Source: Moniliella sp. 'wahieum'
Lineage: Eukaryota
Assembly: GCA_003971905.1 (NCBI GenBank)
Contig: RSEE01000024.1
Span: 620,001-684,000 of the forward strand
DNA length: 64,000 bases
Direction of reading: 5' to 3'
Shown here: positions 1,555 through 63,050 of the stretch, piece by piece
Layout: each line of letters opens with the position of its first letter
Position numbering within the stretch: the stretch's first letter is position 1
Notes under the pieces: generated by a model
The model's input: only the letters and a program-made list of their open reading frames with translations
What the model was told of the DNA's origin: nothing
The model's database searches: none
Position numbers and translations under genes: made by a program

Positions 1555-2222
1555 GTAGAGCTTTCCCCTCCTCCGTTTTCCCTCTGTATACCAATTATTT
1601 TTATCTTTTCCTGCTCCATATCAACGTTCCTGCTCCATGTCAACGTATCAGACTTGTACATTTTGTGCTTTCTGCATTCAGGGCCATTCACTCCGGTCCC
1701 ACGATGCAGCTGATGATCCGCGGCTCAGACGCCTACAACTTTGTACATCCTTGTCGTCTGCTCGAGCGTGCAATTTTCTGTGGGTGCGCTCAAATACCGG
1801 GATGACCATGTTGAGCCGCAACCTTCACACATTGCAACCGTAAAAACCAAAAAATGGTCGGATACCTTCAACTGTCGCGGGCCAGGAAGTGGCCACGGCT
1901 GAGTGAGCGCTCACGGTGAGCCTCACGCCGAGGTAGGCATGGCGAGGTACCACGGCTTGAAGAATCAAGCACAAAGGAAGGTCCAAAAGATTGAGGCAGC
2001 ACCGCGCTAAGGATTCTTCATGGCGAGAGAGAGTTGGGTGGCCAAGACAGGCGAGCAGGTGCCCGAAGGCGTCTTTAGGATATTACACTACGGCAGAGTG
2101 ACCTCGACACTCAATATTCAATGCAAGACAGCAGTGTGCGCTTGCAAGGAGGCCACGCCGGGTCGTTGCAGCCCACTGCAATTCCAAAAGGAGGGAAGGA
2201 TGAGGCTGTCATTCATGGGCTC

Positions 2223-5118
2223 AGCAGCTGGCAAGAGGAAGAGCCAGTGTCACATGTCACGGCCGTCATTTTTCGTACATACACCACCGCAGAGGTCTCT
2301 TGGGAGCATATATATCACGTGTTGGGACCCGCGATCCTGTACATATTAGGCCAAGACACCTTAGGCTTTATCACCCTTTGCCCCTTACTTGACCTCCGAA
2401 GCCTTCACGTCTATACTCAGACTTGTTTGAACCCTTGTCTCCTCTAGGTGTGGCATAAGACTTAGACCGAACCACCACCACCGCGATTGCATTGCTCTAC
2501 ATTTCCAGAGGTTCATCACCCAACCCCTTGGATTCCTCCGGTCGTACATTACGACGACGGCATACCGACCCATTATTGCTGGCTATTGCGTAGCCACTCC
2601 GCCGCAGCCTGCCCCCAGTCCCAGCGCATCTGGAGCGAGTCACGAGGACCGTTGGTGTTAGGGAACCATTGCACTTGGCTCGGCACATGCAGGCAGGCGC
2701 CCGAGGCGAGAGAAAGGGGGACATCCGTTGGTTCTCCACATAGCCTGCGCCTTGCCAGAAAGGAGCAAAAGTGGCGTCTGTTGTTTCTCTGTCCATCCCG
2801 TTCGGGTCGAGCAACCCAGCGGTGAGTACTTGGCCCGTTTGCACATCAACGGGTCCGGCTTGTAACGCAACGATTCGCATCTCGTAAGGCGAACGAGCAT
2901 GTCGCCAATCCAGAACATGTGGGGACAAGGATCCCCACTTTCTTAACTTCGCATCCGGTACAAAATCGGGAACGCAACGTGCGAAAGACCCATGCCATTT
3001 GGCCTGATGGGCTACAACCCTTGGTTGTTCTGGTTGTTCCTTACGGTAGACCCAACCGGGAATAAGGTAAGGCGCAAACATCCTCCCATTCGAGGTTGCA
3101 CCAAACCAAAGCGGTCGGACTCGTTCATGAAATTCCCATATTCCTGCAAGCCATGCTTCATTGGCCGAGCCGCGCCTTAACACGACTTGTAGTTCTTGAG
3201 AATCCAGATGTGGGAATCAGACGAACAATCAGAGCGGGAGGAAATGGTGAGCGATCGCTGAATGAGTCAATAAAGAATTTCAGCGTTGACGTCCCTGACG
3301 TGCCAATCGGATGGAATGACATGAAGGTCGGATCCTCTGCGAGAGATCGTGTCAGTCAACTGTGTGTTGCACGTGGAGGCCGAGATGCACATACAGGAAG
3401 CGTTGTAAGGAAGGGGTAGGCTCCAGGGGGGGTCGATGGCTGGAGGGAGAAGTTGACAATTTGGTCCGGGTGAGTAAGGCCGTACTTGTGCGGATTGCCA
3501 AGCATCTGCTCAAATGACCATACTTTTTTGTGTGGTTTGGCGGTCAATCGCCAGGAGATTGCCTGTTCCCCCGAGGAGGAAAATATATGGTCATCGCCAG
3601 CAAATTGCACTTCGACAAAATCTCTGCAAGTTGCACACTGATTGTTAGTAAAACTCCTCGAACTGCGGAAGGGATAACGATCATACTCGTGGGGTAAACT
3701 TGATCCACTTGGTGAAAGGAAACTCATTCGTCTTCTGTCTAGTGAGCATGCGAATGTGTACAATTTGTACGATGCATCCCTTTGGTATAAGAAGTCAGCA
3801 TGGCAACGCAAATAGGTACATGAAACGTACGCAATGAAGAGGTGTGACCAATCAATGGCGGGGTGAAGCACGATAAGAAAGCATCACTTTGGGCAACCAG
3901 CTGGTGTCAGTGTCCGTGTCGTAAACATCTATTTTGCACTCAAAGTGAATCGATCCGTCATCAAACCGACGCGAGATACACCATAGCCCACATTTTGTCC
4001 CGATATCTGCCTTTGCTTTGCCCTTCCATGAGAAATGGGAAGTCAGAACCGGCTAGCAACAAGTTTCGGAATTGAAGAGAGTACTTACCTCGGAAGACCC
4101 AAACTAGCCACCCGCCAGTCTTGACCATATTGCACGCCGTGTTTCAGCCCAAGCAACATCCTCCGGCGGACAAGTATACAGCCAGGTTGTGCGTCCCGTT
4201 TCCAGTCTACGCTACAACGGCAAGCTCTCCTGGTCGGCTGAGGGGAGGAAAAACCAAAAAACGTGCGATCATCCGCTGAGAAAAGACTGAGGGGCGATAA
4301 TGAAAACCCAGTCCCCAAACAATGGGTTTGATGGACTCTAGTTGAGCGTGCGGATCAACCTCGGAAGAGTGCGTTGGTGCGTTGCCGAGGGCGAATGGGG
4401 CGTTCCCGAGGAGGCACGTATTCGCCCAAAATATTCCAGCCAAAGTGCCATTCGATCATGTCAAGGTACACGACAAAAGCGTACCATGATTGGGAAGGGG
4501 GCAAACATCGGCGCGAATACTGGCCGCTTCCAGCTCCATTTCAAGGATGGAACAAGGCCGGTGCGCAGAGCCAGAGCATGCCAAACGTAGTCATTCATTA
4601 GCGCGTGGTGCAATGCTGGCAACAAAAGAACCCAAAAGTCAGCTTAATTGGTATACTCTCAAAGGGAGCTTTTGGAAATACCCACCTTGTTTGTCTGTGA
4701 GAGGCGGACCCATCCGCAGGAGCGAGAACCCCAAGAGGGATGCGATGTGGTAAAGGATTTCGACCGGTAGGGACACGAGGGTAGGGCGTGGAGGGGCGAT
4801 AGCCAAGCCCTGCACCTCCTCCCGGGGGTAGGGAACGAGGGAGAGCAGGCAATTGGAGCATGTGGCCGTCGGGAGGGAGTGCTGGCGGAGGGAGGAGAGG
4901 TATTAGGGTGAGGGCGATGGGCGGTGTGGACATACGCCAACAGGAGCCAAAATCAGCAAGGCGGGGCGGCACTGCGCTGGGGGAACACGGGGCATGCACG
5001 CTGGCATGTTTTGACCAGCGGGGATGTGATTACAGGGGTTGCAATTTGGGTGTTATTGCCAAGCCACGCGGCGGCTGGATGGCGGATGATTGAGGGCGAG
5101 GATCGAGGGTAAGGATCG
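2223..5118 (-). repeat. Inverted duplicate (copy 1) of 14646-17473, covering promoter, F-box gene and 3' flank
   Basis: Reverse complement aligns by eye along the whole length, e.g. both copies encode LRRGSANEAWLAGIWEFHER and share gtacgaaaaatga...tgacactggctcttcct downstream. Confidence 0.95.
2573..4860 (-). pseudogene. F-box protein with PQQ-like beta-propeller repeats, copy 1; many frameshifts (pseudogene or sequencing errors); start approximate
   Basis: Paralogous to 15002-17344, with the same introns (GTGGGT and GTAAGT donors) and stop TAA at 2573-2575. Reading frame is broken by numerous 1-nt deletions. Confidence 0.7.
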
Positions 5119-5123
5119 TTGCA

Positions 5124-6103: not shown

Positions 6104-6381
6104 ACTGTGGGAAGGGCGAAAAGTAAGGGTGGGGAGTACGACGATGGAAGATACAGGGAGGTGTTTGTTTATGAGCAACAAGGAAGCGGGGGATGAGATG
6201 GAGGTGTTAGCGGCAGCGACGCCATAGGGGGTGAAGTCTTATATAGACAGGCCTTTGACTCCGAACACCGGAGTCCGGCGTATGGGAGTGGATAGGATAG
6301 CGTTGCTACGGCGGGGAATGCGCGGACTTTTGTGGTCGTGGCCTGTGGAACACCGTCGCCCTCGCATACGATCCCTGGAAG

Positions 6382-6621
6382 CTTGAAGCTTGATGGACGA
6401 CAGACACTCAGCCATGCCGACAAAAAGCGAGTGCTCAGCCCTTAACTAATGAGTCCCGCCGCTACGCGCCAACCTCAAACCCCGTCCGCATAATGGCGAA
6501 CAACGGGGAGCTCTGCCCCCAGTAATAGCACCACACCGCTTCTCCTGACAGGCGGACCCTCTGCCCTATTTGCTGTCCCCTCGAACGAGATCAAGCTTCA
6601 AGCTTCAAGCTTCAAGCCTCA
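6382..6621. repeat. TNA+palindrome heptamer arrays: CT-TGA-AGCT-TGA (6382-6393) and (TCAAGCT)x3-TCAAGCC-TCA (6591-6621)
   Basis: Read directly from the sequence. Confidence 0.95.
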
Positions 6622-10647: not shown

Positions 10648-11385
10648 GTCGGGGGGACCGGCAGGACAGGGAGTGCGGTGGTGGTGGCGAAGGTGGTGGC
10701 GATGGTGCGTGGTAGCCAGATTGAAGCTTGAACGCACGCTGCGGCCGATCAGGTGTGCTAACCACAAGCGAGCCTGGTGCATCCGCCACTGAATCGCATT
10801 CGGTGCAAATCCACACCGGGCCTCGGAGGGTTGAATGTTTCAAGGGTGGTCAACGCAGCAGTGCCGGGTGGATGCTTGCGCTGCCGACAGCACCCGAGAC
10901 TGACCTCGGTGTGGGACGACCACTCGTTGCCAATGTTGCAGCGCCCGGTGGAGGCGCGGGCCCCATCCTCACCATCCTCATCGCCAACCCCCCCCACTAC
11001 CCCACCGCCGCTATCGCCACCTGCCGTTGCTAGAGGTCTCATGAGATGTGCCTTTTCCTTGGACGCGGCCGGGCCCAGATGTCCATAGTAGCCCGGAAGC
11101 ACCCCGTAGCTCGTTGAACGCTGAACGAGCCACATCTATACGACACGCTTCTCTTTGACTGAGACGGAGTGTGCGCTGGTCGCGCTCAGCGCTTGGCTTA
11201 AAAGTTACTAGGGCCAGTAAGCAGGCCGTATTTGTGGCCAATCTTACCTCCATCTCGGGTGCCAGATGCATCCACTTTAAAAAAGTTTCGCCAACGGCAA
11301 GGCCGAGATTGTCTCTTTGGCCTATGCCGCGGCCAATGTAGGTCGCATGCCTGTGAGATAATGGTGGCCAGGAAGGAAGCTCATA

Positions 11386-12863: not shown

Positions 12864-12882
12864 GTTTAACGTTTAACGTTTA
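12864..12882. repeat. Heptamer array GT-(TTA ACGT)x2-TTA upstream of PEX12
   Basis: Read directly from the sequence. Confidence 0.9.
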
Positions 12883-14417: not shown

Positions 14418-14589
14418 GGTGGGGGGGGGGATGGAGAGAGAGGTGGTAGGCAAGAAGCTAGACGCGCGTGCGCGGTTGGACAGCAGTGCGTGCATTCACA
14501 TGATCCGCATCCGGATCCATCCCATCGTCTGTTCCGAGTGGGGCGCCCGGCGGGCGATGTGGCATGTGGCGGCGGGGGCGACGGTGTCC

Positions 14590-14690
14590 GATCATCGATC
14601 ATCATCCATTGTTTCCGCCATTGAAATGTTGATCATCAATCGAGCGATCCGAACAATCATCGATTCTCGCCCATCGATCATCGGTCATCG
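14590..14690. repeat. TCA-TCGA heptamer cluster in the divergent promoter between the lipase and F-box copy 2
   Basis: GA-TCA-TCGA-TCA-TC at 14590-14603 and degenerate units at 14653-14690. Confidence 0.85.
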
Positions 14691-17473
14691 GCCATCCAGC
14701 CCGCCGAGTGGCTTGGCTATTACATGCAAATTGATTGCACCCCCTTGTAATCCCACCCCCCTGGGGGAAACATGCCAGCGTGGCATGCACTGTGTTCCGC
14801 CCAGCGCAGTCCCGCCCCGCCTTACTTGGGATTTTGGCTGCTGGTGGTGTATGTACCACACGGCTGCCCATCGCATTTACCTTCGATTTGGCGCGCCTGT
14901 CGCCCTCACCCTGGTATCCTGCCTCCCCCTCTCCTCCGCCTCCATCCACTCATCCATCGCTAGCATATCCTCCCTCCGCCAGCATTCCTCCCGACGGCCA
15001 CATGCGCCAATTGCCTGTTCTCCCTCGTTCCTTTTTTCCCCTGCCCCCGGGGAGAAGGAGGTGCGGGGCTTGGCTATCGCCCCTCCACGCCCTACCCTCG
15101 TGTCCCTACCGGTCGAAATCCTTTACCACATCGCATCCTCTGGGGTTCTCGCTCCTGCGGATGTGGTCCGCCTCTCACAGACAAACAAAGGTGGGTATTT
15201 CCAAAAGCTCTCTTCGGAGAGAGTACCAATCAAGCTGACTTAGGGGTTCTTTTGTTGCCAGCATTGCGCCACGCGCTAATGAATGACTACGTTTGGCATG
15301 CTCTAGCTCTGCGCACCGGCCTTGTTCCATCCTTGGAAATGGAGCTGGAAGCGGCCAGTATTCGCGCCGATGTTTGCCCCCTTCCCAGATCATGGTACGC
15401 TTTTGTCGTGTACTTTGACATGATCGAATGGCACTTTGGCTGGAACCTTTTGGGCGAATGCGTGCCTCCTCGAGAACGCCCCATTCGCCCTCGGGAACAC
15501 CCCAATTCCCCTCAGGAACGCACCAAGCGCCGTGCCATTTCGGAGGTTGATCGACCCGCTCAACTACAGTCCATCAAACCCATTGTTTGGGGACAGTGTT
15601 TGCGATATCGTTCCCCACTCTTTATCACAGCGGATGATCGAACCTTCTTTGGTTATTCCAACTCAGACGAAGCAGAAGACTTTACCGTTGTAGGCGTAGA
15701 CTGAGAGACGGGCCGGACAACCTGGCTCAATACCTGCCCACCGGATGAAGGTGATTGGGTTGACGCGTGGGCGCGCAATATGGTCAAGACTTGGGGATGG
15801 CAAGTTGTGGTCTTCCGAGGTAAGCACCCTCTTCAATTCCAAAATTTGATGCTAGCCGGTTACCTACCTCCCATTTCTCATGACAGGGCAAAGCAAAGAC
15901 GAAAGATATCGGGACAAAATGTGGGCCATGGTGTATCGCGTCGGTTTGGATGACGGATCGATCCACTTTGAGTGCAAAATAGATGTTTACGACACGGACA
16001 CTGACACCAGCTGGATTGTTCCAAAAGACGCTTTCTTCGAAGTGCTTACACCCGCCATTAATGGTCACAGCCTCTTCATTGCGTACGTTTCATGTTAACA
16101 TATATGTGTGGCCGTGCTGGCTTCTTATACCAAAGGGATGCATCGTACAAAGTGTACACATTCGACATCCTCACTCGACAGAAGACGAATGAGTTCTCTT
16201 TCACCAAGTGGATCAAGTTTTCAAACTACGAGTATGATCGTTATCCGTTCTGCAGTTCGAGGAGTTTTGCTAACAACCAGTGTGCAACTTGCAGCGGCTT
16301 TATCGACGTGCAAGCTGCTGGCGATGACCAGTATATTTTCCTCCTCGCGGGAGCAGGCAATCTCCTGGCGATTGACCGCCAAACCAATGAAAAAGTATGG
16401 TCATTTGAGGACATGCTTGGCGATCCGCCCATGTACGGCCTTAATCACCCGGACCAAATTGCCGCCTTCTCCCTCCAGCCATCGACCCCTCTGGAGCCTA
16501 CCCCTTCCTTACAACCGCTTCCTGTATGTGCATTTCTGCCACCAGCACATGCACACAGTTTGACTGACACGATCTCTCGCAGAGGGATCCGACCTGCATG
16601 TCATTCCATCCGCTTGGCACAGCATGGCTGAGCACGCTGAAGATCTTTGTTGATTCGTTCACCAAGTCGCTCATCATTTCCTCCGGCTCTATTCGTTCGT
16701 CCGATTTCCACATCTGGATTCTCAAGAACTACAAGTCGGTGTTAAGGCGCGGCTCGGCCAATGAAGCATGGCTTGCAGGAATATGGGAATTTCATGAACG
16801 AGCCCGACCGCTTTGGTTTGGTGCAACCTCGAATGGGAGGATGTTTGCGCCTTACCTTATTCCCGGTTGGTCCTATACCGTAAGAACAAACCAGAGGGTT
16901 GTAGCCCATCAGGGAAAATGGCACGGGTCTTTCGCGCGTTATGTTCCCGATTTCGTGCCGTATGAGAAGTTCAAGGAGTGGGGATCCTTGTCCCCGCATG
17001 TTCTGGATTGGCGACATGCTCGTTCGCCTTACGAGATGCGAATTGTCGCTTTACAAGCCGGGCCTATTCCTGCACAGACGGGCCAAGTACTCACCGCTGG
17101 GTTGCTCTACCCGAACGAGATGTTCAGAGAAACAGCAAGCGCCACTTTGGCTCGTCTCGGGCAAGGCGCAGGCTATATGCAGACCCAACGGATGCCCCCC
17201 TTTCTCTCGCCTCGGGGCGCCTTCCTGTTTGTGCCGAGCCAAGCGCAATGGTTCCCTGCCACCAACGATCCCCATGAGGCGCTCCAGATGCGCTGGGACT
17301 GGGGGCAGGCTGCGGTGGAGTGGCTACGCAATCGCCAGCAATAATGGATCGGTGTTCCGTCGTCGTATATATGCCCCCAAGACACTGTAGTCTGCCAGGC
17401 GAAGGTGGTCTGTGTGTGTACGAAAAATGATTAATGACGGCCCTGACACTGGCTCTTCCTTTTGCTAGCTGCT
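14646..17473 (+). repeat. Inverted duplicate (copy 2) of 2223-5118
   Basis: Same alignment as copy 1. Confidence 0.95.
15002..17344 (+). pseudogene. F-box protein with PQQ-like beta-propeller repeats, copy 2; introns 15191-15261 and 15820-15886; in-frame TGA at 15702-15704 and frameshift near 16096; start uncertain
   Basis: Splicing gives a complete F-box LVSLPVEILYHIASSGVLAPADVVRLSQTNK|ALRHALMNDYVW. Propeller-like motifs VVGVD*ETGRTTW, YRVGLDDGSIHF, LLAIDRQTNEKVWSF. Confidence 0.75.
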
Positions 17474-19474: not shown

Positions 19475-20289
19475 GCAGCTGCTGCCCTGACTGGATGGAC
19501 ATGAACGCATCTCTTGCGTCCTGCATTGGCTACCGTTACCCTTTCTTCCTCCGGCAACCCCCTCCCCCCTCTTATTGAATTGCCCTGTCTCTTCCATCTC
19601 AAATTTCATCTGCACGGTCAACAAGAACTCGAAGCCATTACGGAGCTTCACATTTGGCAATCACGTTAATCACGGTTGCTGGCTGCAAATATAAGATCCG
19701 GGTTGTCGTAGTAAGCAGCGTGCGTATATGGGCACCGACGGAAAGTATTCCAGTCTAGTGTCTGGAGCTAGGCCATACTTGTGTCAGAACGAGAAGCCCC
19801 AGACCTGGGCTTGATCGCTTAGCCTCTCAGGTACGCCCTGCCCGCAGGCACGCCCTACTGCTCGTGGAGGCTTGTTCAGAGCGACCAATAAGCTGAGACG
19901 GACGCCAAGATCATCGATCTACTGAGTAGCTCAGCCGCGCCCAGGCTGAGTCTCAGCATGGCCGTGGCAGTTGTTTTGGCCGACTTGTGGTTCCGTGGGG
20001 CGGGAATGATTAATGACTCTTGAGCTGAGCAGGACTGGACGCTTCGATCGCGCCGAAGAGTGTCTGGTCGACGAGGGGCCACCCCAGCAAGCCAAATGGG
20101 ATTGGTGCGCCCCATGCGCCCTATGACGCAAACGAGCCTATGACACTGGCGCCATGCCGGGATATAATCCTGGAACGGATGTCCTGGGCCCTTCCAAACA
20201 ATACCTCCCCTCCCACTACCCCCACTTTTTGCTTCGTCTCCATAACCACCTCCATCTTGGGACCCATTCCTCCCTTCCCGTTCTTCTCC

Positions 20290-24445: not shown

Positions 24446-24580
24446 GACCAGCAGTAAAATCAGAGGTGGCGTTGGTGGGGCTGGCTGGTGACGGCCAAAC
24501 ATCGCAAAGCAACGCAAAAGGAGAGATCCTGATAGGCCCACGTGACTTGCGTCTTCGTTTCATTTTCTACGCACTGCAAC

Positions 24581-24676
24581 GTTGAACGTTGAAGCGGCGC
24601 CAGTAAAGTTCAAAATGCAATGTGCCACATTTCGCAAGTACTAGAGTGACTAGCTAGTGACAGCTAGTGACTAGTG
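24581..24676. repeat. Heptamer units (GT-TGA-ACGT-TGA; TGA-CTAG repeats) in the divergent promoter of the Apq12-like gene and eEF1B-gamma
   Basis: Read directly from the sequence. Confidence 0.85.
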
Positions 24677-26806: not shown

Positions 26807-27225
26807 TAAGATCTAAGATCCGAGAAGAAGCGGGGTGGGCGTCCCGAGAACAAGACCAGTTGTGGTTCACAGGGCGATGCGTCGCTGAAAAGCCGCACGA
26901 TATAAACACGCTCGTCACGCGTCACGCGTCACGAAGTTACGCGTGACAAAATCAGCGTTCAATAACATGTAACAGTGACTAGTGATCGAGTGATCATCGA
27001 TCATCGATCATAGCGATAATCGATAATCTATCGCGTGACAGTGACATGCGACATGCGACATACGATGCTGCGCCACACATCACCCATCACGCACAGCACG
27101 TCACGCAACACTTCACCTTTCAAACACGCTTCCCTACGTCATCGACGTCATCACGCCGTCGTCACCCCATCAATCATCGATCCTCAAGCCTGGCCTCAAG
27201 CCTCAAGGAGGCCTCAGGGCCTCAG
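26807..27225. repeat. Dense cluster of TNA+palindrome heptamers upstream of the SH3 gene
   Basis: TAA-GATC-TAA 26807, (TCA-CGCG)x2 26915, TAA-CATG-TAA 26963, TGA-CTAG-TGA 26976, (TCA-TCGA)x2 26994, CGA-CATG variants near 27045. Confidence 0.92.
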
Positions 27226-27308
27226 GTTGCTGCCAAGTACCAGCAGGTATACTAACCCCCAGCGGCGAGGCCCAGCCGCCACTCGCTCCGCCACTTCTTG
27301 CTCCCGGC

Positions 27309-36232: not shown

Positions 36233-36407
36233 CACATGTCAGTACTGTCACATGTCAGTGGTCATTAAGTCACTAGCCGCTGCATGTCACCGGTCACTGG
36301 TCAGCCATGTGACAACCACTATACAGCTGCTATGTGTGTGTGTGGATTGGCCCAGTTGGCCCAGGTCTGTCCGGTACACAATAGCTTCTTAGATCTTACC
36401 GGTTACC
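36233..36407. repeat. Heptamer cluster including mixed array TC-TTA-GATC-TTA-CCGG-TTA-CC
   Basis: Units at 36248, 36287, 36389. Confidence 0.9.
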
Positions 36408-39900: not shown

Positions 39901-40642
39901 GGCAGGCGGTGAGTCTGATGAACGTGGCGTTTCATTGCTCACATGGCTTCAATTGAGCTCTATAGCACGAAGGGTACGAGTTCAGGAAGGAAGATGTGAG
40001 CAGGGAAGAAATAGGATCCAAGAGTGTTTGGACGAGGTAGAGAGAAGAGGGGATAGCATTCATATGGGGTAAAGTCACAGAAGCGAATCAGGAGAACGAG
40101 TCGAAGAAACGATTGAAGGGATAATGGCAAGGGTATTCAAGGGCACAATATGAATCAGAGTGAGATAGAGACGAACCTGGGTAGAGACAGAGAGAGATAC
40201 AGAGGGCTGTTGGGAAAAAAGGCTATGAAGAGAGGCAAGGGGAAAAGGAAAGCGGCGTATGTGGGGTACCTATAACTGGAGATGCTTTACTACTGTGCTC
40301 AACGTTGCTCCCCATTTTGTCGTCGGAGGTCGCGTGCGTGAAGTCACGCCCCACACTTTTTTGGGTCCACTGTGTCTCGCCTCAGCCAAATGTGTGGTCA
40401 CGCCGCGGATTTGGCCGCCGCATGCAACCCATCGAGAGAGAAACGGGCGCTTCTACTACTATTGAAGATGTGGAAGGTTAATCGATTACCCGCACCCCCT
40501 CTGGGTTGAACTTGATATGCGCAAAGGAAACTGACAACAGAGTTTGAGGCCACGGCATGAACAATAGCAGCAGGGCATTTTGAGATCGATTAGCGATAGG
40601 TGCGGTGTGCCCTGGCGTATAGCCACTGAGAGTACTGTAAGC

Positions 40643-40912
40643 GTTCAACGTTCACTGAGCACTGGAGCCTCAGCTGAATGTAAACGTGTATGTGTCATGA
40701 CAATCCTTTTTGAAGCTTGAAGCTTGAAGTGTGGTCAACGCCAATGGAAACATCCCCTCTTTTGAGGCAACTGTGAACAGGATGTGTGCCTGAAGATCCG
40801 AGAGCCAAATTTACCTCCCGGCCGATTGATGCGCATTGGAAGAGCAACACATATCCAATACCTGGTTCCCGAGTATAATGAGATCTGAGAGTTCATCGAT
40901 CATCGATCATCG
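40643..40912. repeat. Heptamer cluster (TCA-ACGT, TGA-AGCT x2, TGA-GATC, TCA-TCGA x2)
   Basis: Units at 40645, 40711, 40879, 40893. Confidence 0.92.
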
Positions 40913-44180: not shown

Positions 44181-44448
44181 GGCCGTGTGGAGGCGAATGC
44201 GCAAGATGGGGTGGCAAGATGGGGTGGTGGTGAGAGGCCAAAGTGAACTGCTGACCGGGGAGAGTACCTAACTATGCGCCAAGACGGGATCCAGGGTGAA
44301 GTGCACGCGATGCTGACAGCCGACACTGCTGGTGCTTGCGCCGCCCAACGGCGCTGGGCCTGAGCGCCCTGAGTCCAGCGGTGGTCCGCGTGTCAGCACA
44401 GGTGATGAATATAAAACTCTAGTGCGATTAAATCAGGGCGGCCACTCG

Positions 44449-44677
44449 TTACATGTTACACGCCCTGGCGCCGCTATCCCAGACACACTCCCCCTCTGCT
44501 GTGGGGCAACTGAATCAAATCACCCCGCGGCTGCCGCCCGTGTTCACAATCTCGTCATGCGTCACGCGTCACGCTTGCGCCCGGCGGCACCAAACGACCC
44601 CTGTGGCTTGTTCAGCGATCAACTGAACGTTCAACGTTCAACATTCAATGTTCAACGTGTTCAACTTGAACGTTCAA
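44449..44677. repeat. Heptamer cluster upstream of the HAL kinase
   Basis: TTA-CATG-TTA 44449, TCA-CGCG-TCA 44562, long degenerate TCA-ACGT array 44624-44677. Confidence 0.9.
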
Positions 44678-45115
44678 CCCGGGTAGCCTCTGCGAGACCT
44701 CAGGCACAGGCGCGGGCTACTATAACCGTGGCATCCTGGACGAAGACATGTGATTACTATGATGTTCTTTTCACTCGACAAACGACATGCATCCTACGGC
44801 CACCACATCCATCGCCGCCAACATCCACCCCATCCACCCGCATAAGCCGACCCAAGAGGAAGAAAGAACGAACGGCATCCGTTGAAACAAAGGAGGACAA
44901 AAGGGCGCACCGGGCAGCCAGCGGGCAACAAACTGATGAGAAGAATAAGGATGGGAGGATAAATCGGCAAAAAGGAGCAAAAAACTTGAGAGGAGATGCA
45001 CGGACGAGAGACCCGTCATTAATCATTGCTGGCACGAACGTGACATTTGTGGTCCACGGTAATAGTAGGAAGCTATCAGGAGCGCACCGCCAATCAGCTA
45101 GCAGTGGTCTGCGCC

Positions 45116-46665: not shown

Positions 46666-49126
46666 GGTAGGAGTGTGACTGTTGCGTGGGGAGAGAAACG
46701 AATGTGTGCTGGGAGAAGATAAAGGTTGTCAGAGATGGAGAGCAGGGAACGAATGTGGTGGTGGGAAGGGTCAGGGTTGAGGCTTCAAGTAGGACGGACG
46801 AACGTTGCTTCAGCCCGGAGGGGGGGGAAAGTCACTAGTCATCCCGTCTCCGTCTCTATAATGCGAGGCTATAACAGAGTGATGAGGTATCGATGAGGCA
46901 TCGGTGAGAGCGGCGCGAGCGGTGCGTATGATTGCGTGGACGGCTTGGCTGGGCTTGGCTGGCGCACCGTGCTGCCTCTGTCCAGCTGCCCCCACGCGGG
47001 CATTGTTCTGCTCCCAGGGGATCCGTAAAGCTGGTGTGGTAAGTACTGGTTGCGGACCAGTGCCACCGCTGTAAAGAGCCGTTCGCAGCAAAGCAAAGGG
47101 CACGGCCCGCACCTGAGCGCACCGCTACAAACCCAATCACACACTGGCCCTCTGCCGCCAGTGCAGCCGATCGTCGACACACAGGCCCCCCTGCCAGAGT
47201 GATGGTCTGGGGTGCCTGACGTGGCGCAAATGGACGGCACTGGCCCCGTGCCACACATGCCCGCCGCCACCACTCCAGGCTTGGCACTGGCGCGGATGGA
47301 AATCCTTGAGCCGCACATTATCCTATCCCCAAGCTCTACCATTGGGCTCTGCTGCCGCACCCTTACAAAGCATGCATTACCGGCTACCGCAGTATGGAAG
47401 AGACCTGGGATGCCCGATCCTCGGCCCCCCTTGGAATGGCGGCGATACTCCGCCGAACAGTGGACTATTGGGTCTCTTGCTTACGCGCGCTTAGGCACCG
47501 CCACTGCCGAGCCTGAAAAAGGCCATACGAGAGCGGTCACATTAACGTTCGTCGACTCGTACCATCCCAGGGCCTCAGCCCTGTACTACCCTCGCATGTC
47601 TCACTCCTGCAGCACAGGTCGTAAGCCGGCAGCCTATCAGAATCACAAAACATATCGAATTCCTTCAGCAGCCGATCCCCGGTAGAAATCTCTTTTACAT
47701 CCTCCCATTAATAACCCTCGGCCAAGGCGTACGAGCGTAGATGTGTGCGCAAGAAGAGGAGAACCAGCAGCCCTTGATGGGGAAAAAGAGGAGACACCTC
47801 CCACTTGGCGCAAATGATAATGGCGTTCCCCACAACAGAGCAGACGAAACTGCGGAACCAAAAGGCGACGATGTATAACTGATCTCGATCTCTGTCGGAG
47901 TAGCCCGTAGCAGCAGCAGCCAAGATGCAAGGAGGTTGTCAGGTTCTGTTTGACGGGTACCGTGTCGGCCAACTCAACCTCCGTTGACTCCGGTCCCAAG
48001 TCGCTGCCGTCCAGCAAAAATGCCTTCAACTTCCACGGCTTCTAAGCAATTAAGAGTCTATATAATGCTGAGGGGCTTATTAAGGGAACAGAGTGTGGGA
48101 ATACTTCCTGACCTGGATGGGGCGCCAGATGCACCTCCTGAACGCGCTGCACGGAAGCAAGTCGAAGGTGCCAAAAGGGGAAGTAGGCCTTGATCCAAAA
48201 AGCACAGTCCTAGAGGCAGTTGGTCCAGAACCTCTTCGACGGATAGGACACGCCACCATCCGGAGACCGTGTATCGGGGCTCCTCTCTCTCCGGCGGTCA
48301 GCGGCAACGTATCGCGATTGTCCGCGTGTGTGCTCACGAAGTATCATCCTCTGTAGTCCTTCTGCTCGACGAGGCAACCTCTGATATCTGTTCCCTTTTG
48401 ACATGAGACGGGTACGGAACTGAGCCTATCCCCTTCAAGTTGCTTTGGAGAGTGCAGCAGCAGAAGAAGAAGAAAAGCAAAAGGTGGTGCTGATGCAGGA
48501 ACAGAAGGCGGCACGTGGGATGATCTGCATTTTTGTCATCGCGCGTTGCCTGTGTCGATGGTCAAAATGCCCACCACAATGTCACGCCACCAATGGCCCC
48601 AAGGTCGATGAGGGCACCCACGACAAACTGATGCAGCCAGGGCGGTACACCGGCTCCATGCCATGTTTTGGTTCCCCAGCGACATTCCATCGTGCCCACG
48701 GTGGGCGCCTCGGGAACGCCGTGGGATGAGACGAAGGAGCGGGCAGAGGAGAGTGATTTGGGTGTGCCACTCCTGTTGCCGCGGTATTGTTGAGCGATGC
48801 TGCCACTCTTATCTTCCCGCCGGATCTGTCCACGCCCTCCCCCCCCCCCCCCACCAGTGCTAAGTTCATCGTGTCTGACCCTTCTGCCAAAAAAAGCACG
48901 ACTTTCTCAGATTGGACGTAATACCACACTCCTACCCAGCCACTTACTTTTTGCCCTCCCTTTCTCCCTCCGCGGAAGTGTCAGAGCAGGGGGACATTGG
49001 GCAGCTACCTCAGGTTGGCATCCGGGCCGTGTTCCAGACCCTCAAGTTGGTACAATAAGGTGAGGTTATTTCGTCCTGAGACACATTGACAAAGAGGCAT
49101 TCTCGTTAGTCCTACACGTTCTATAA

Positions 49127-49221: not shown

Positions 49222-49750
49222 TTTTTTTGGTTGTGCCATCAAATCCAGACGCCAAGCTGTTGACACCCCGAGAGTCAATTGGCCATGTACACCGCTGGCT
49301 TGGTCCTTTCCTACCTGAGGCGACAGGGGTGAGCCTCACCACCACCCTCATGCTCTCACTGGCGGCTCTAGTCACTCGAATCAAAATGACGTCTTGTGCG
49401 TGGGCATCGCATCGCATTGAATATTGACGGTACGAGCCACGGTTATGGGATGCACCTATATCACTCCACCTATGCTATAGCCACTAAATCCATCCATGTA
49501 TGTACAACAAGACATCGTTGATCTGAAGTGGGGGCAGGGGAGGCCCTCGACGCATTAGGACCCATGAGATGGGAGAGGATAAACTCGATCCCGTGTAATG
49601 GATGAAGGTTGGCTCCGGCCAGCGGAACCATAGGAGGGAGGAGGGAGGAGAGAGAGAAAGATGACGCAGAGGGGAAAAGGGGGAGGCGGGTGATGCAACC
49701 TGTACACACACCCTAAGCACAACCGTAGTGACATGACAAGGGATAGAGGA

Positions 49751-50739
49751 TTACGCCAAGCTGGGTGCCAGCGTTGCGGGCGGGAACGCAGGTTCAAACG
49801 CGAGTTTGCGCATGGACACGGTGAATGCTGTGCCCAACGACGGCGAGGCGGTAGAAGCATCCTGGATTAGCAGCTCGTCCACCAGTTCCTTCTTGTTGGA
49901 TGGCGAAGGGAAATCCCAGTCGCCGACAACCGTCTGCTCACCCAAGAGGAGACCGAGGACGAGGAGATAGACCCCGTCATCAGCTGCGCCGGGCTCGCGG
50001 TCGAGACGAGGTGCGAAGGCGAAAGGGGTCCCGGGGAGAGAGTGGAGAGGTCCGTGGGAGCTACGCTAGTTGGCGCAGCAGCAACGACAGGAGGGAAAGG
50101 GAACCCGTTTGCCAATGCCGAGTACTGGTTCATCGTTGGGGCCGAAGGTGGAGTGACGAGCGTCGCGACAGACGACGACAGGGGGCCTTGCGGCGGGAGT
50201 TCACCCAGCGAGGGGGGGAAAGCACGCTGGGACGGGTGAGGCACCCCAACCGAAGGGGACTGGCTCTCCGGGCTGGAAGGAACAAGATGGGATTGAGCAA
50301 TGGCTTGGGCCTGCGAGGGTCATGCCCTGTGCTTGGTTCGCTTGGTTGGTCAAAACATCAATCACTCCCTCAGCCATCTGAAGGCGCTTCTCAAAATCCA
50401 TCACGGCCGAGTAGAGGTGCTGGTTCTGCTGCTTGAGCCAGTGGTTTTCCTGGACCAGCATGCGGTGCTCCACCTCAATGCGACTGAAAAGGCCTTCTTC
50501 TTGTCCCGGCTGGCCTGAGCGGAAGCACGGTTGCGCGCCTGCCGCGCCTCGAGGCGGGCAATGCGCTCAGCGCTCATAGGCTTGGCGCGCTTGTTGGACG
50601 GGGTCAGGTTGGCCTGGGATGGGTCGTCGCTTTCGAGCTCACGCTTGATAGGAGCACGGGGGCTCAAGGTGGCACTCGAAGCGGGCGAGACAGAGCGGGT
50701 GGAGGGGGAGAGCGCAGCGGGAGATGAGACGGAGGACAT
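49751..50739 (-). CDS. bZIP transcription factor, Hac1/Cib1-like; several frame shifts
   Basis: KRAKPMSAERIARLEARQARNRASAQASRDKKKAF followed by a leucine zipper (L.VEHRML.QENHWLKQQNQHL). Resembles Ustilago Cib1 as recalled; not verified by search. Confidence 0.8.
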
Positions 50740-51721: not shown

Positions 51722-52442
51722 TGAGATCTGAGATCTGAGATTGGATCCATATGGAGTTCTGAAAGGCAGGCCGATAGCCGATACGCGTCGCTGGTGGGTG
51801 GGCTGGGGAGGCCAATTCGGCCGCCTGGAATGGTGGCCGGTGGGGGCCGTAACCATCGATTCACCGACCATTCAATATTCAGCGCTCAACGGTATGTGAT
51901 CAATGATCTGTGATCCGTGTGATCGATTGGTGCGGCTGCGCAGCGCTTACCTAACCACAGCGAGCGTTCAAGGGTTCAGTTCATACGTTCAGCATGCATC
52001 ATGCGTCCGGCATCAATGGTGAGACCGGTGAGGCACTGGAGAACTGCTTGACTGCTCCTCATCGATGGCTGACACATGCCGCATCCCGCCTGGGTGCTCT
52101 GGAGGTAAGGTAACCGGTAACCAATAACCGGATAACCATAACCGGTAACTGGTAAGTACTAACCGAGGGCTCAAATACACCATTGCCAGTTTAGCGCTTA
52201 GCCACCCATCAATGATCGATGATCGATGGGTTCTGAGACGGTGCTCAGTGCCCCCGTTCTGGAAAGGCTGCAGAGCCAACACATCGTACCCATCCCATAG
52301 CCTGCATAGCCACGGTGCACAATTTGAACCTTTGCGGGTCTGTCGGAAACGCGCAGAAGACCAGGTGGAATGACTTCTCTCTTCGAGGCACTGGTCTAGC
52401 GACTCGCTAGTTACTAGTGACTAATCAAGCTAATCAAGCTGA
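51722..52442. repeat. Heptamer cluster upstream of the bZIP gene
   Basis: (TGA-GATC)x2 51722, TCA-ATAT-TCA-GCGC-TCA 51872, TAA-CCGG/CTGG/GTAC array 52111-52162, TTA-GCGC-TTA 52191, TGA-TCGA-TGA 52213. Confidence 0.92.
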
Positions 52443-52841
52443 AAAGGCCGAGGGGACTGTTCCCCGGAGGCCCGCTTTTCTCCGAAAGCAATTGCCTGTT
52501 GTGGCAATTGCATGCTTCCCTCCCTTCTGTGGCGCCACAGGCAAGCCACACCCTGGCACTTCCATTACCACCTGTCTGGAGACCTTTCCGAGCAAGCGTG
52601 GGTAACCGGTTGGGTAATCGGCAACCGGGAATCGATAACAGACAACCAATTAATAGGGTTTCTGACCGGTTGGTCCTGGATTATTTGCTCAAAACAAAAG
52701 ATCCCCGAGGGCTGTCTACGTCTCAACAACGTCCCCTACACCGTGCCAACATACCAACACCCTCCCCATTCTGTACCTCACCACCTCAGCCAAGTCCCGA
52801 GGCCGAGAAAGTGACGGTCACTCCGGTCACTCTGGTCACAT

Positions 52842-53455
52842 ATTGACAGAGCTTAAGGAGTTGGAACAAAGAAACGCTGCGTCTACGGCCTAAACCGACC
52901 CGTTCATCGGGCTAGTGTTGCCTGTTAGCGCTTGGCGCCAACCCAGTTTAGGAAACCAGGGGAATCACCAGGAGATCAGGGCCCTCTGGTGCCCACGATC
53001 CGTTCCCATTCCCGAGGTAGCGCTTGCGGACACGGATGAAAGTGGTAGACACCCAATAAAACGGTGTGGACGATGTGCACATGTTAAAGCCACCCAGAAA
53101 TTTGGGTGATAAATCAATTTCAACCCTACCACCTCGGCCATGGACAGTTCCCCCACGCTTAACCAAGACCTTTATTGCGCCGCGTTCCGCAGGAATGATC
53201 TAATCCGTGTTACGCCACACTGCATATGATTTGACGACGGAACGATGGACATTGTGGACGAGCGGGGAAAGCGGCCTACGGAACGGTGGCCGAGGGGGGG
53301 GGTTGGCCATTAACAGTTACCACCAACACGGCGGAAGGGGGGCCCCCGACCTTCAATGCAGACGCACACAGTAACAGCATCGATAAGGTACTCAGAACTC
53401 AGATCTCAGACCAGGCCGTAGGCCGTACGCCATAGGCCCCGCGGTCCTTCCTCTT
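52842..53455. repeat. Diverged dispersed repeat A, second copy
   Basis: Aligns with 34321-35040. Confidence 0.85.
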
Positions 53456-53997
53456 CCGCCATCCATCGACCACCAGGCATCATGCATCATACATCATGCA
53501 TTCTCACCCAATCCAAAAACAAGGGGGAGAGAACGTCTGAACCTGAACTCTGAACGTTCAAGTTGAACGTTGAACGTTGAACATACATTGAAACTCGAAA
53601 CCATCGGGCCTCAGGCTCACTCTCTTTAAACCACTAGTCACTAGTCACTAGTCACTAGTCACTGACTACCAAAAAGTGACTGAGAACTAACCTTCTGACA
53701 TCTGACCTCTGACCGATCTGAATATCTGAGCCTTGGGAGCCAGACTGAGCCCCTGCCCGAGCTGGACGAGCCCCCGAGCTCCCGTCTCCCGCGCTCTCGC
53801 GCGCACACCACCGACAGACGGCACGTTTAGTAACTAGTAACTCACCGAAACGCCTGCGACAAATGAAGAAGCAACCTATAGCACTCTCTGTCAACCAGTT
53901 TTACGGCAAGTATTTTTAGGGACACTGTAATAGGCGGTGTGACCTTGGTGACCGGCCAGCCACCCTTAGCACTAAGCTTAGCGCTTAGCGCTTAGCG
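53390..53997. repeat. Heptamer cluster (TCA-GATC, TCA-TGCA, TGA-ACGT, TCA-CTAG x3, TAA-CTAG, TTA-GCGC x2)
   Basis: Units at 53399, 53480, 53564, 53638, 53831, 53978. Confidence 0.92.
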
Positions 53998-54238: not shown

Positions 54239-56368
54239 GATGGGGAAACGCAGGAAGACGCAGGAAAGGAAACGCAGGAAAGGAAACGCACACAACAGCA
54301 CAGCAGCTTGCAGCAGCTTTTTACCGGGGACCGCGACTGATGCACTGATGCCTTGCAGCTTGAAGAAGCTTGAAGCAAAGGAAGACTGAGGAAGGCGATG
54401 TGATGATGTGATGAGAAACGCATCTGTACTCCGTCCATTCAATGTACTCAGGTCCCCGGTACTCAGGTACTCTCAGGGCACTCACAGGCGACCGGGGCAC
54501 ACCTGGCACACCTTGATTTGGCTCAAGCTCTCTCGAAGGGGAGGCAGGTCTGAAACCTTCCCGGTTTCCCACCTGAACCACACGAAAAGTACTAGCATGG
54601 GCTGCCATGTCCTACTCGTAACTCGCGTTACCCATTGCTACTTACCATAATAGTTACTGTGGATTGTACGTTTGGGTTAGGTCCTGGCGTTCAATCTGAG
54701 ATGAAATCTAAGAGGGGGCGCCAATGGATACGCCAAAAACCTCCATTGACCGTGGCTATTGGCCCCAAGAGCATCTACCTATTAACATGGTGTAAACCTC
54801 ACTGAAACACATCAGAGGTCTCGTTTCCCCTCTCGGCAGGCGAGGAAGGAAGTGCACTTCAAGCTTCACCCACTTCATGTCGGATGGAAAGTCAGCGATC
54901 CCCAGCTTGGAAGTTGGGACCCCTCAGAAGCTCTTGCAACCGGAGGCGGCAACAGGGGTTGTACTGGCAGGTTGCTATTCCCTTCGGTGCGTCCCCGGGT
55001 AACTCTTCTCTCTCCGTGGAGGCGGAGCCTGGGGTACTATGCGAGTGCTTGTAATGATGCCGCCGCTGGTGCGGTGGGAGGTGGATGGCCCAACAAGAGG
55101 ACGTGTGGGTGTAAAATGGATCGCTGCTGCCTGGGCGGGGGCTGTGTTGATCTCCAGCTTGATGGGACAGTGGGGATGCAGCCGCGGAGGCTGTGGGAGT
55201 GGCGCTGGAGAATCAATGGCTGTTGGCGCCGGAGAATCCAAAGTCGCTTCCCGGGCTACTAGGTAGAGGGCAACACGGGCCATCGAGTTGACACACTGTG
55301 CACAACTGGATGTCCTCCACATTTTCCCATCGAAGCGGATGGGCATAGAGGCAAGTGTGTTCACGGCCTCCAGGAGGCAAGGTGGTGTGCAGCCAAAATG
55401 CGCTACATTTCCCCCATAGACTCGCCGTTCGTTCGTGCTTGGACGCTGCGGTTGATGGTCAACTTGGTGTTCCGAGGCGAATCTCTTTGCCCTTGCAAGT
55501 TGATCATCAACGGCGAGCCCAGGAGAGTTGCGGACCAAGTAGGCGTTTTCTGGAAGGGACGGCGGACTAAGGCGGAAACAAGGACATAGATAGACCGTTG
55601 CTGTCTACATGGCGACAGGCTGGGGCGAGAACCCCCAGACATGGTACTATGCATGCAGGCCGATGCAGAGCACTACCTATATCGTCCCCCAGTGTGGTTC
55701 TCTTGGTTTTCGCTAATAGATCGACCACACGATCTGCCCACAGCGCCACAGAGGGGATGGAGACGTGCAAAGTACTTACAAAAATAGACATGGATGCGCG
55801 TTTTGTATGCTGTGTTGTGCCGCACCTGGCCTGCTTTGGCTTCTGCGCCGGGGCAGTAGACGATGGGAGGGCGATCAGGCGGTTCGCTCCTACATTTTGT
55901 CGATCGCTGCGCGGGCGGCCAAGTGCCATCAATCAACTCGAAAGCGTTCAATATGTGTTCCGACACTGCGAGCTGCGCAAAAGAAGAGAGTCACCGCTCA
56001 GGTCACCGGTGGGTCCCGGCCGGCCCACCGACGCTCGCTTGTATTCATATCCTGCCCACCCATGTCCTCGGCGGCCATCGTCGCTGCCGCCCCGCACAGC
56101 TGCGGGCACAGACGGGCCCCGTGCATCCGGGGAGGGGGCAGAGCTCAAAGGCACCCCCTGCAGCCAGCAGGGCCGCTGAGGCGTGCGCACGCAGGCTGCT
56201 GGGGTGCGGGGAGACGGGTGTGGCCGCCACGTACAGAAAAGAGAGCGCCCTCTGGTGGCCCTTTTAAGCCCCTCCCCCACCGGTCCGTCTCTGGCCACCC
56301 GCGCCCCTTCCTCCTCCTTGGCCTCCCCACCCACCGCCACCTACCTCTTTTTTCTTCACTGACACAGC

Positions 56369-60900: not shown

Positions 60901-60935
<35 letters not shown>

Positions 60936-62500: not shown

Positions 62501-62695
62501 GGCCAGGGAGGGTGGAGCGTGGGGGCGAAGACACTAAAGGGACGAGCCGGGCAGCGGAGAGAAGGGCAGGGCAAAAAGACCAGACAAGAGACAAGGCGCA
62601 TCCCACGGCACGGGAGGAGCAGAGGGCAGAGACCGAGGGGGAGCAGCAGAGGCTGGACGGGCCAGACGTAGAGTGAGAGGGGAGCGGCGGGGAGT

Positions 62696-63050
62696 ACTGA
62701 GTACTGACTGAGTACTGACGCTGGCAGGAAGAGAACCTGGCAGCGAGTGGCTGGCTGCGGCCGTATGTGGACCAGCTGCGTCCGGGCACCGCAGCACTGT
62801 GCCAGCCGCCGCCGCTGCGACGGACGAGCAGCGTAGCGCGTGACGTCATGGCGGGGGGCGGCGCTGCGCTGGCGCCGTGCCGCCCCCGCGACCGACGACT
62901 GCGGGTCGGGGGTGGCGCGGGGGGGTGGCACTGGCCAGGTGCGGCCCACCTGGTTCTCGCGAGCGAGCACTAAAGAGGGGCAGCCGACGGCGAGCGTAAT
63001 CGGCCCCAGTACGTGGCAGCATATATGTACTCAGACCGAGTACTCAGATC
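62696..63050. repeat. Heptamer units (TGA-GTAC-TGA twice; TCA-GATC) upstream of the RRM gene
   Basis: Read directly from the sequence. Confidence 0.8.

Follow-up and report, generated by a model that had tools for sequence, protein, structure and literature searches.

A TNA-centred, period-7 grammar of flank-derived palindromes in a basidiomycete DNA window, and its possible origin in excision scars

Background

The 64,000-nucleotide stretch of contig RSEE01000024.1 analysed here (positions 620,001 to 684,000; the window) carries dozens of short arrays that share one geometry and differ in sequence, and the question they raise is what process founded them. Each array contains a TNA trinucleotide, a 4-bp palindrome and the same TNA again, and the palindrome usually repeats the bases that flank the array. 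The sites may be scars left by repair after cutting by a DNA transposon of the cut-and-paste type, or by a nuclease acting through the same chemistry, that has a 7-bp TNA-centred target and whose flank hairpins are opened 2 nt off the tip, with slippage acting later; we give this reading an even chance. What was observed directly is described first: the geometry, specificity and symmetry of the sites, a duplication that spans 7 bp, the presence or absence of units at matching sites, and expansion that is independent of TNA.

The TNA-palindrome-TNA pattern

The pattern is defined as TNA, a 4-bp palindrome (xyy'x') and the same TNA, a ten-mer core of exactly 10 bp. A site obeys the flank rule when its palindrome consists of the two bases just outside the TNA pair and their reverse complement. 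Chance levels are taken from dinucleotide-preserving shuffles of the window (50 for the ten-mers, 100 for the flank rule, 30 for the junction classes). The window has 84 same-N ten-mers against 2.6 +- 1.7 in the shuffles. An initial annotation, made from the letters alone, had noted more than 40, with about 4 estimated by chance; its six example coordinates all read as claimed. The flank rule is obeyed by 72 of the 84 sites (shuffles: 0.37 +- 0.56, maximum 2), which bears out both the proposed flank origin of the palindrome and the description of the unit as a local TNA duplication joined by a 2-nt inverted, P-nucleotide-like copy of the flank. The 84 sites form 71 arrays, about one per kb, and the 61 that are at least 12 bp long sum to 904 bp. 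Thirteen palindromes are used under the flank rule rather than the 14 or more initially listed. GGCC, one of those listed, and TATA never lie between same TNAs at spacer 4 in the window, and AATT does so once, without the flank rule.

The excess is confined to TNA and to period 7, as a control on other trinucleotides and periods across the window confirmed. A scan of all 64 trinucleotides for the form tri-palindrome-tri gives 167 matches, 84 of them from the four TNA; ATC is next with 7, the others have at most 4, and the stronger hairpin closers CNG and GNC are unused. The two trinucleotides also agree with each other, N being equal to M in 84 of the 98 TNA-palindrome-TMA sites. Same-TNA pairs at spacers 0 to 9 number 61, 36, 47, 40, 155, 54, 63, 46, 43 and 65, with the peak at spacer 4, and identical TNAs most often lie 7, 14 or 21 bp apart (155, 100 and 59). 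There are 183 runs of period 7 against 90, 94, 83 and 63 at periods 5, 8, 10 and 11, and in Tandem Repeats Finder output period 7 is the commonest short period (40 of 136 rows).

The array ends are phased on TNA, with 24 of the 71 arrays beginning at T and 28 finishing at A, which plain slippage would not produce. Together with the 13 own-flank palindromes and the restriction to TNA and period 7, this phasing agrees with the earlier argument that neither a fixed binding motif nor ordinary slippage accounts for the founding event. TCA and TGA arrays stand to TAA and TTA arrays as 48:13 among the 61; the availability of these trinucleotides outside Pfam frames is 1505 for TCA/TGA and 637 for TAA/TTA. 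Among the non-palindromic TNA-N4-TNA pairs, 29 of 65 are one mismatch away from the flank rule, indicating that eroded copies raise the TNA-N4-TNA count. Eroded units, in 33684-33726 and elsewhere, often deviate by CG to TG or CA (CGCG appearing as CACG or TGCG), a hint of CpG decay.

Extent and symmetry of the duplicated target

Sites were written as L2L1-TNA-R1R2, and the spacers between two TNAs were classed by whether they can be built from the flanks. The main class (spacer 4) has 46 matches to R1R2 plus its reverse complement and 50 to the reverse complement of L2L1 plus L2L1, giving 72 distinct junctions. The spacer-5 class keeps one extra flank base, for six duplicated bases, and the spacer-6 class has full 7-bp NN-TNA-NN copies with two inverted bases between them; each has 7 sites against 0.00-0.03 in the 30 shuffles, where no junction class is expected more than 0.23 times. 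A product that keeps both palindromes has one fitting site (34013), which is ambiguous with GC slippage, and the candidate at 24647 fails to fit. The junction spectrum is thus 72, 7, 7 and 1 for spacer 4, spacer 5, spacer 6 and both palindromes. In a search for a 7-mer, a 2-nt inverted filler and the same 7-mer, TNA is central in 7 of 17 matches although it makes up only 4 of the 64 trinucleotides; the other 10 have 10 different central trinucleotides and are partly other phases of the same arrays.

The unit had been described initially as a 5-bp duplication (TNAxy) with a 2-nt inverted filler. This describes the main product, the 72 junctions, and falls short for the target, which is better read as 7 bp (NN-TNA-NN) and TNA-centred because 14 sites retain six or seven duplicated bases with the inverted filler. 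Single events are 18 right-only, 23 left-only and 7 both-sided, and in a common orientation they use TCA 17, TGA 17, TTA 4 and TAA 3 times. This symmetry of left with right and of N with its complement fits a symmetric TNA-centred target and not an oriented 5-bp one. The base beside TNA is mildly biased, with C after (or G before) in 37 of 96 cases against a background of 25%, which suggests a preference for nG-TNA-Cn.

By-products that the 5-bp model predicts with uniform hairpin opening are not enriched over the shuffles in the window (TNA-N'A-TNA, 6 vs 3.2; TNA-TN'-TNA, 3 vs 3.2; TNAxyy'x'Axy, 6 vs 2.1). Plain TNA-centred 7-bp duplications lacking the filler are no commoner there than for other trinucleotides, and palindromic spacers of 2 or 6 bp between TNAs show no enrichment.

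Presence/absence states and array growth

The window contains an inverted segmental duplication, 14968-17367 against 4896-2550, of 2.4 kb and 86.6% identity, in which one stretch looks gene-like but matches no Pfam family; the copy at 2550-4896 has numerous 1-bp differences and may be a pseudogene or contain introns. Just beyond the duplication end the paralogues align cleanly except for two reciprocal 7-bp pieces. The copy near 2270 has AATGA where the other has AATGAttAATGA (AATGA-tt-AATGA, 17431-17437), and the copy near 17445 has a single TGACA where the other has TGACAtgTGACA (TGACA-tg-TGACA, 2249-2255). Reciprocal 7-bp differences at single TNA sites indicate that the sites behave as insertions rather than conserved motifs. 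A further unscarred state at the same site occurs between two related metagenome contigs, where L002 and L067 align with GTTGA against GTTGAacGTTGA (GTTGA-ac-GTTGA); this pair also differs in the copy number of a TCAAGCT array and by other kinds of indel. The +7 bp differences that had been predicted for such comparisons are thus present both between the window paralogues and between L002 and L067.

Growth of the arrays appears to be a separate step. Three or more TNA are present in 11 of the 61 arrays (about 18%), nine with three and two with four. Arrays that lack TNA in their unit still reach 2.7 copies (27043) and 3.7 copies (33820), showing that expansion needs no TNA and supporting a separate slippage step. 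Upstream of the duplication, a degenerate array also differs by about one unit between the window paralogues (14672..14696 against a stretch near 5100), and the chain at 33684-33726 contains a 21-bp higher-order duplication. Taken together, the multi-unit arrays, the TNA-less arrays and the 21-bp duplication point to slippage or unequal exchange as the second step. Three chains share one TNA between different palindromes (33222-33244, 36387-36407 and 51870-51888), as expected of two events on opposite sides of one TNA.

Occurrence in metagenome contigs

The grammar recurs in further fungal metagenome contigs, among them an Agaricales-like one. Metagenome contigs scanned with a 17-base AGCT array gave at least 121 loci and at least 594,670 bases. 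Leaving the AGCT units aside, these hold at least 60 TNA-palindrome-TNA sites, at least 38 of them under the flank rule against an analytic expectation of about 4, among the matches listed. All six sites of L001 obey the rule, L004 carries the chain TCA-GGCC-TCA-GCGC-TCA, and the +8 and +9 classes recur with at least 20 and at least 5 matches. The pool is mixed, with many loci bacterial-looking, and the enrichment is real in some contigs and weaker overall than in the window: among the matches listed, rule-obeying sites number 40 for TNA against 207 for the other 60 trinucleotides (10 vs 3.5 each), with GCT, AGC and TGC also high. L067, the relative of L002, is the Agaricales-like contig, its best named match being Crepidotus at 62%; a search with a frame of L004 gave no match. 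Another scar-bearing contig, L021, has a tandem family of four 1.5-1.9-kb copies with 76-82% identity.

Location of the sites

Placement was judged from open frames and Pfam matches, not gene models, and intergenic is used here in that presumptive sense. With this qualification the initial description of the sites as intergenic holds for 82 of the 84, which lie outside Pfam-supported frames (15,195 bases), and the remaining two are at the extreme 5' edge of such frames; it holds less well for 14 of the 71 arrays, which fall within stop-free frames 200 codons or longer and lacking Pfam support. That the sites avoid genes counts for the excision-scar reading. Arrays sit in promoter and terminator regions and are clustered, with 12 in 32-34 kb and 11 in 52-54 kb, while other gene-free stretches hold few. 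Stop-free frames of 200 codons and Pfam matches are both missing from the roughly 10 kb of 31400-41900, where 27 of the 71 arrays lie; this may be a gene desert or a cluster of genes that are small and evolve fast. Short dispersed repeats tie the two array-rich regions together (54064-54241 with 36932-36759 at 82%, and 52842-53051 with 34321-34511 at 70%).

The arrays and variants are as follows, all in window coordinates and with strand given as '.'.

2111..2122, array TCA-ATAT, 2 TNA
2248..2260, array TCA-CATG, 2 TNA; 7 bp (2249-2255) missing in paralogue near 17445
6378..6393, array TGA-AGCT, 2 TNA
6591..6617, array TCA-AGCT, 4 TNA
10721..10732, array TGA-AGCT, 2 TNA; 5' edge of NEO1-like frame
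12864..12882, array TTA-ACGT, 3 TNA; 5' edge of Pex2/12-like frame
14589..14603, array TCA-TCGA, 2 TNA
14672..14696, degenerate period-7 array, CATCGGT-like; about one unit more than paralogous stretch near 5100
17426..17437, array TGA-TTAA, 2 TNA; 7 bp (17431-17437) missing in paralogue near 2270
19659..19674, full 7-bp duplication AATCACG + TT + AATCACG (period 9)
20005..20016, array TGA-TTAA, 2 TNA
24578..24593, array TGA-ACGT, 2 TNA
26807..26820, array TAA-GATC, 2 TNA
26913..26933, array TCA-CGCG, 3 TNA
26963..26974, array TAA-CATG, 2 TNA
26974..26985, array TGA-CTAG, 2 TNA
26981..26995, period-8 variant, TGA + TCGA + one retained flank base + TGA
26992..27011, array TCA-TCGA, 3 TNA
27014..27028, array TAA-TCGA, 2 TNA
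27043..27061, period-7 array GACATGC x2.7, unit without TNA
27137..27152, full 7-bp duplication CGTCATC + GA + CGTCATC
27212..27226, period-8 variant, TCA + G + GGCC + TCA
31545..31560, full 7-bp duplication GATGAAG + TC + GATGAAG
32422..32434, array TCA-CATG, 2 TNA
32741..32752, array TGA-TGCA, 2 TNA
32776..32787, array TGA-ATAT, 2 TNA
33015..33027, array TCA-CATG, 2 TNA; within degenerate TGTCACA-like run 32990-33027
33222..33244, chain sharing one TGA, aa-TGA-TTAA-TGA-GCGC-TGA-gc; both sides of one TNA used
33403..33415, array TGA-TGCA, 2 TNA
33531..33550, array TGA-AGCT, 3 TNA
33684..33726, TCA-N4-TCA chain (CGCG, CACG, TCGA, TGCG, CACG) with the 21-bp higher-order duplication
33771..33783, array TCA-TCGA, 2 TNA
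33820..33845, period-7 array GTCGCAT x3.7 (TCG-CATG, no TNA); expansion after or without TNA
33881..33896, array TAA-AGCT, 2 TNA
33905..33931, period-8 array TCA + ACGT + C, 3 TNA
34011..34028, gc-TAA-GCGC-GCGC-TAA-gc; sole fit to both palindromes kept, ambiguous with GC slippage
34127..34141, period-8 variant, TGA + T + GCGC + TGA
34285..34298, array TCA-GTAC, 2 TNA
35106..35118, array TCA-CATG, 2 TNA
36246..36257, array TCA-CATG, 2 TNA
36286..36297, array TCA-CCGG, 2 TNA
36387..36407, chain sharing one TTA, TTA-GATC-TTA-CCGG-TTA
37229..37240, array TGA-CGCG, 2 TNA
37310..37321, array TCA-TCGA, 2 TNA
38361..38372, array TAA-CGCG, 2 TNA
40642..40654, array TCA-ACGT, 2 TNA
40710..40729, array TGA-AGCT, 3 TNA; an example in the initial annotation
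40879..40890, array TGA-GATC, 2 TNA
40893..40912, array TCA-TCGA, 3 TNA
44448..44460, array TTA-CATG, 2 TNA
44559..44574, array TCA-CGCG, 2 TNA
44626..44665, array TCA-ACGT, then degenerate units and full duplication GTTCAAC + GT + GTTCAAC (44650-44665)
45016..45027, array TCA-TTAA, 2 TNA
46830..46841, array TCA-CTAG, 2 TNA
49416..49427, array TGA-ATAT, 2 TNA
50563..50576, array TCA-GCGC, 2 TNA
51722..51741, array TGA-GATC, 3 TNA
51870..51888, chain sharing one TCA, TCA-ATAT-TCA-GCGC-TCA
52109..52155, TAA-CCGG array with degenerate GGTAACC-like units; period-8 variant at 52123-52137
52191..52202, array TTA-GCGC, 2 TNA
52212..52228, array TGA-TCGA, 2 TNA
52423..52438, full 7-bp duplication AATCAAG + CT + AATCAAG
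52816..52831, full 7-bp duplication GGTCACT + CC + GGTCACT
53398..53410, array TCA-GATC, 2 TNA
53477..53490, array TCA-TGCA, 2 TNA
53562..53582, array TGA-ACGT, 3 TNA
53632..53663, array TCA-CTAG, 4 TNA; the longest, 32 bp
53828..53842, array TAA-CTAG, 2 TNA
53976..53997, array TTA-GCGC, 3 TNA
54336..54350, period-8 duplication ACTGATG + C + ACTGATG
54857..54868, array TCA-AGCT, 2 TNA
62692..62718, two adjacent TGA-GTAC arrays

Excision-scar model

Covalent flank hairpins, as in hAT, MULE and Transib/RAG chemistry, are the known source of such P-type palindromes, and a target-like duplication whose copies are joined by inverted flank bases marks an insertion that was later excised by this route. 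The flank-templated 2-nt inverted filler (72 of 84 sites vs 0.37) favours hairpin excision, and it has no microhomology that could let a polymerase switch strands. The left/right symmetry is as expected for a dimeric enzyme on a symmetric target, and the graded junctions (72/7/7/1) resemble end joining. The 7-bp TNA-centred duplication, the unscarred states and the existence in Basidiomycota of elements that duplicate 7 bp also speak for this reading. From this scar geometry we infer the transposon itself, the hairpins, the joining route and the order of the steps.

In the proposed sequence, an element would insert at a symmetric L2L1-TNA-R1R2 and duplicate 7 bp (2 + 3 + 2), and its excision would seal both flanking ends as blunt hairpins. 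If the host opened each hairpin 2 nt off the tip, the result would be a duplex ending exactly at TNA with a 4-nt self-complementary overhang, R1R2R2'R1' on one side and L1'L2'L2L1 on the other. End joining would mostly keep one overhang and trim the other, giving TNA, a palindrome derived from the left or right flank, and TNA, 7 bp longer in net terms. More rarely, trimming would spare one or two further bases, giving the +8 and +9 forms, or both overhangs would be kept, giving the ambiguous form at 34013. Replication slippage or unequal exchange, possibly with re-insertion into new palindromic 7-mers, would then enlarge the arrays, and point mutation would erode them.

Several observations weigh against an excision origin. 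No element is apparent: inverted repeats (16 nt or longer, up to 6 kb apart) in the 64-kb window are array-on-array matches only, and duplications of 3, 5, 7 or 8 bp beside 14-nt inverted termini are noise in the window and the metagenome loci, with one clean match, in L029. Pfam scans returned no transposase, neither among 106 window open frames (housekeeping families only) nor among 87 open frames from scar-bearing metagenome loci. The earlier remark that no candidate enzyme is visible in the window is thus borne out by the Pfam, inverted-repeat and duplication-plus-terminus scans alike. The 72:7:7:1 spectrum is unusually narrow, known hairpin scars being usually more varied, and about one scar per kb is a very high density. 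Scars of the complement-substitution type made by hAT elements occur just once or twice for each form among the TNA pairs. We know of no described family that combines a 7-bp NN-TNA-NN target with blunt flank hairpins. The share of multi-TNA arrays (11 of 61) is far above that expected from random re-hitting of about 2,100 TNA sites, so slippage or hot-spot targeting is needed. From two paralogues alone, a unit gained cannot be told from a unit lost and the change cannot be polarised, but the arrays must have begun by gain. PMC5751038 describes the subphylum as compact and repeat-poor and reports Transib with 0 copies among the 1,726 fungal genomes it surveyed.

A more specific proposal is tentative, and we rate it as possible with somewhat less than an even chance. 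The agent would be a hairpin-forming transposon not yet described, or a nuclease domesticated from such an element, active now or recently in Basidiomycota with an NN-TNA-NN target and a 7-bp stagger. It would be nearly invisible as an element, each visit leaving a +7 bp P-nucleotide scar; once enlarged by slippage, such scars would rank among the main sources of new intergenic DNA and of the large tandem-repeat fraction reported in smut genomes, and would explain the '10-bp repeats' of Ustilago maydis (see below).

Alternative explanations

A serious rival, which we consider unlikely, is a host process of site-specific break and repair, or of replication, that involves no transposon. A nuclease or a stalled fork at TNA would be followed by snap-back or strand-switch synthesis, which would insert the 2 inverted nt and copy the site again, leaving a lineage-specific mutational signature of Basidiomycota. 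Such a process would fit the lack of a visible element or transposase in the window and the scar-bearing metagenome loci, the very high density, the very uniform product and the presence of the pattern in at least two distant basidiomycete groups (the Ustilaginomycotina window and the Agaricales-like contig). It has difficulty with an inverted filler that lacks microhomology to prime a strand switch, with a strict TNA specificity and symmetric flanks that point to a site-recognising dimeric enzyme, and with the combination of a 7-bp duplication and P-type filler, which is what insertion followed by hairpin excision predicts. No host process known to us yields a target-site-like duplication together with a hairpin-type palindrome, which also counts against it.

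The mechanism offered in the initial annotation, a 5-bp TNAxy target duplication with one-sided P nucleotides from Transib/RAG-like or hAT-like chemistry, is improbable. It describes the main product exactly (72 junctions), and its even-length palindromes from blunt hairpins are RAG/Transib-like. Against this, 14 sites retain six or seven duplicated bases, the extra products it predicts are at shuffle level, and it requires an unexplained one-sidedness where the data are symmetric. The hAT-type complement substitutions seen just once or twice each and the absence of Transib from fungi reported in PMC5751038 also speak against it. The proposed likeness to hairpin repair in hAT, Transib and RAG systems stands for the P-type filler and is not supported on these two points or on the 7-bp target. 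Ordinary heptanucleotide microsatellites, or selected cis-regulatory repeats such as TGA/TCA half-sites 7 bp apart, are highly improbable. The arrays do lie in promoter and terminator regions and slippage is clearly active, as copy-number differences and arrays of mutated units show. As the origin of the arrays, however, this reading is already contradicted by 13 palindromes each taken from its own flank, TNA-phased array ends, no comparable excess for other trinucleotides or periods, sites that are not conserved between the window paralogues, and the stronger closers CNG/GNC left unused.

Comparison with known systems

Hairpin-type footprints (Ac/Ds, Tam3, hobo, Hermes) and V(D)J P nucleotides share with the window sites the target copies joined by short inverted flank copies, the 2 + 2 nt palindrome as from a hairpin opened 2 nt off the tip, and the graded trimming. 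They differ in that the window has a 7-bp TNA-centred duplication, one dominant product, about one site per kb and no element seen. hAT elements duplicate 8 bp (nTnnnnAn) and Transib/RAG 5 bp. The window duplication, 7 bp of nnTnAnn, is not the hAT form, and the complement-substitution scars are found only once or twice. With Transib/RAG it shares the even-length 4-bp palindromes of the 72 junctions, for which hairpins would account, and differs in its target of 7 bp rather than 5 bp.

The single clean terminus match, in the fungal-looking metagenome contig L029, has an 8-bp GTGCAGAC duplication and perfect 14-nt termini; it is hAT-like and unrelated to TNA. The element (4324-5063) is 724 bp long, with termini TAGGGTAAAGTGAG and a GTGCAGAC duplication that fits nTnnnnAn, and looks like a hAT-type miniature inverted-repeat transposable element.

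Two groups of DNA transposons with 7-bp duplications are described in Basidiomycota (PMC12730594): hAT7, in the Pucciniales rusts, and Kyakuja (KDZ), in Agaricomycotina. Both resemble the window in duplication length and phylum; Kyakuja as described there differs in having CA..TG ends and no inverted repeats. Homologues of either were found neither in the window nor in the metagenome loci. Tc1/mariner footprints likewise have a fixed-size palindromic filler between two short target copies, but the target is TA and the filler comes from the element termini and is identical at all sites, whereas the window has a TNA target and 13 own-flank palindromes. PIF/Harbinger and IS4/IS5-type elements have a symmetric target centred on TNA or TWA. 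The PIF/Harbinger duplication is 3 bp (TWA/TNA), and that of the window reaches 2 bp beyond TNA on each side. Excision of PIF/Harbinger was precise in 109 of 110 yeast events, according to PMC2836001, and should leave no such scars, a further point against an excision origin through this family. A microsatellite born by slippage may have any unit and any phase, whereas founding in the window is TNA-specific and phased, with whole-unit growth afterwards.

The TNA plus flank-derived palindrome grammar has no description in the full-text literature searched, which most subscription papers fell outside. The closest report is of '10-bp repeats' in U. maydis, which lie between genes of a smut genome poor in transposable elements and were suggested to be transposon footprints (Laurie 2012 and Schirawski 2010, as cited in PMC4081816). 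Going by that citing description only, both are small intergenic repeats read as transposon footprints, and the core in the window is exactly 10 bp; the two may or may not be the same thing. Such repeats are not described in three other smut genome papers. Hairpin-type excision scars are a known kind of thing, and there is a real chance that the repeats, but not their grammar, have been published before.

If the scars are what they seem, cut-and-paste activity is recorded densely and datably in basidiomycete genomes poor in transposable elements, unnoticed by repeat annotation, and the scars could serve to gauge the history of transposition, the choice of targets and the repair of hairpins in fungi. 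The sequence may then record a mobile element that is no longer visible in the window. Part of the tandem-repeat content of smut genomes, given as 4-11% in PMC4824034, would also be explained. If no element exists, the sites would be a new sequence-specific signature of templated insertion. Either way, the grammar of NN-TNA-NN with two added inverted bases makes a simple genome-wide test. Several frames acquire stop codons from the arrays, and promoters and terminators acquire palindromes, so that the arrays may affect gene birth and regulation.

Genes and other features of the window

The window has a base composition of 56% G+C. Its Pfam matches include a NEO1-type P4 ATPase, Pex2/12, EF-1 gamma, two protein kinases, PP2C, a polysaccharide deacetylase and an RRM protein. 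The NEO1-like ATPase frame has 70-72% identity with Ustilaginomycotina proteins (Tilletiaria, Thecaphora, Sporisorium and others) and two closer protein matches, at 91% and 82%. Based on the Ustilaginomycotina identities, the DNA is assigned to the smut subphylum of the Basidiomycota; none of the ATPase matches is to a close named relative.

A hexamer array, (GAATGC) x15.3, lies at 59073-59164 within a long minus-strand open frame, and further 6-bp arrays follow at 59367-59869. These are probably coding repeats.

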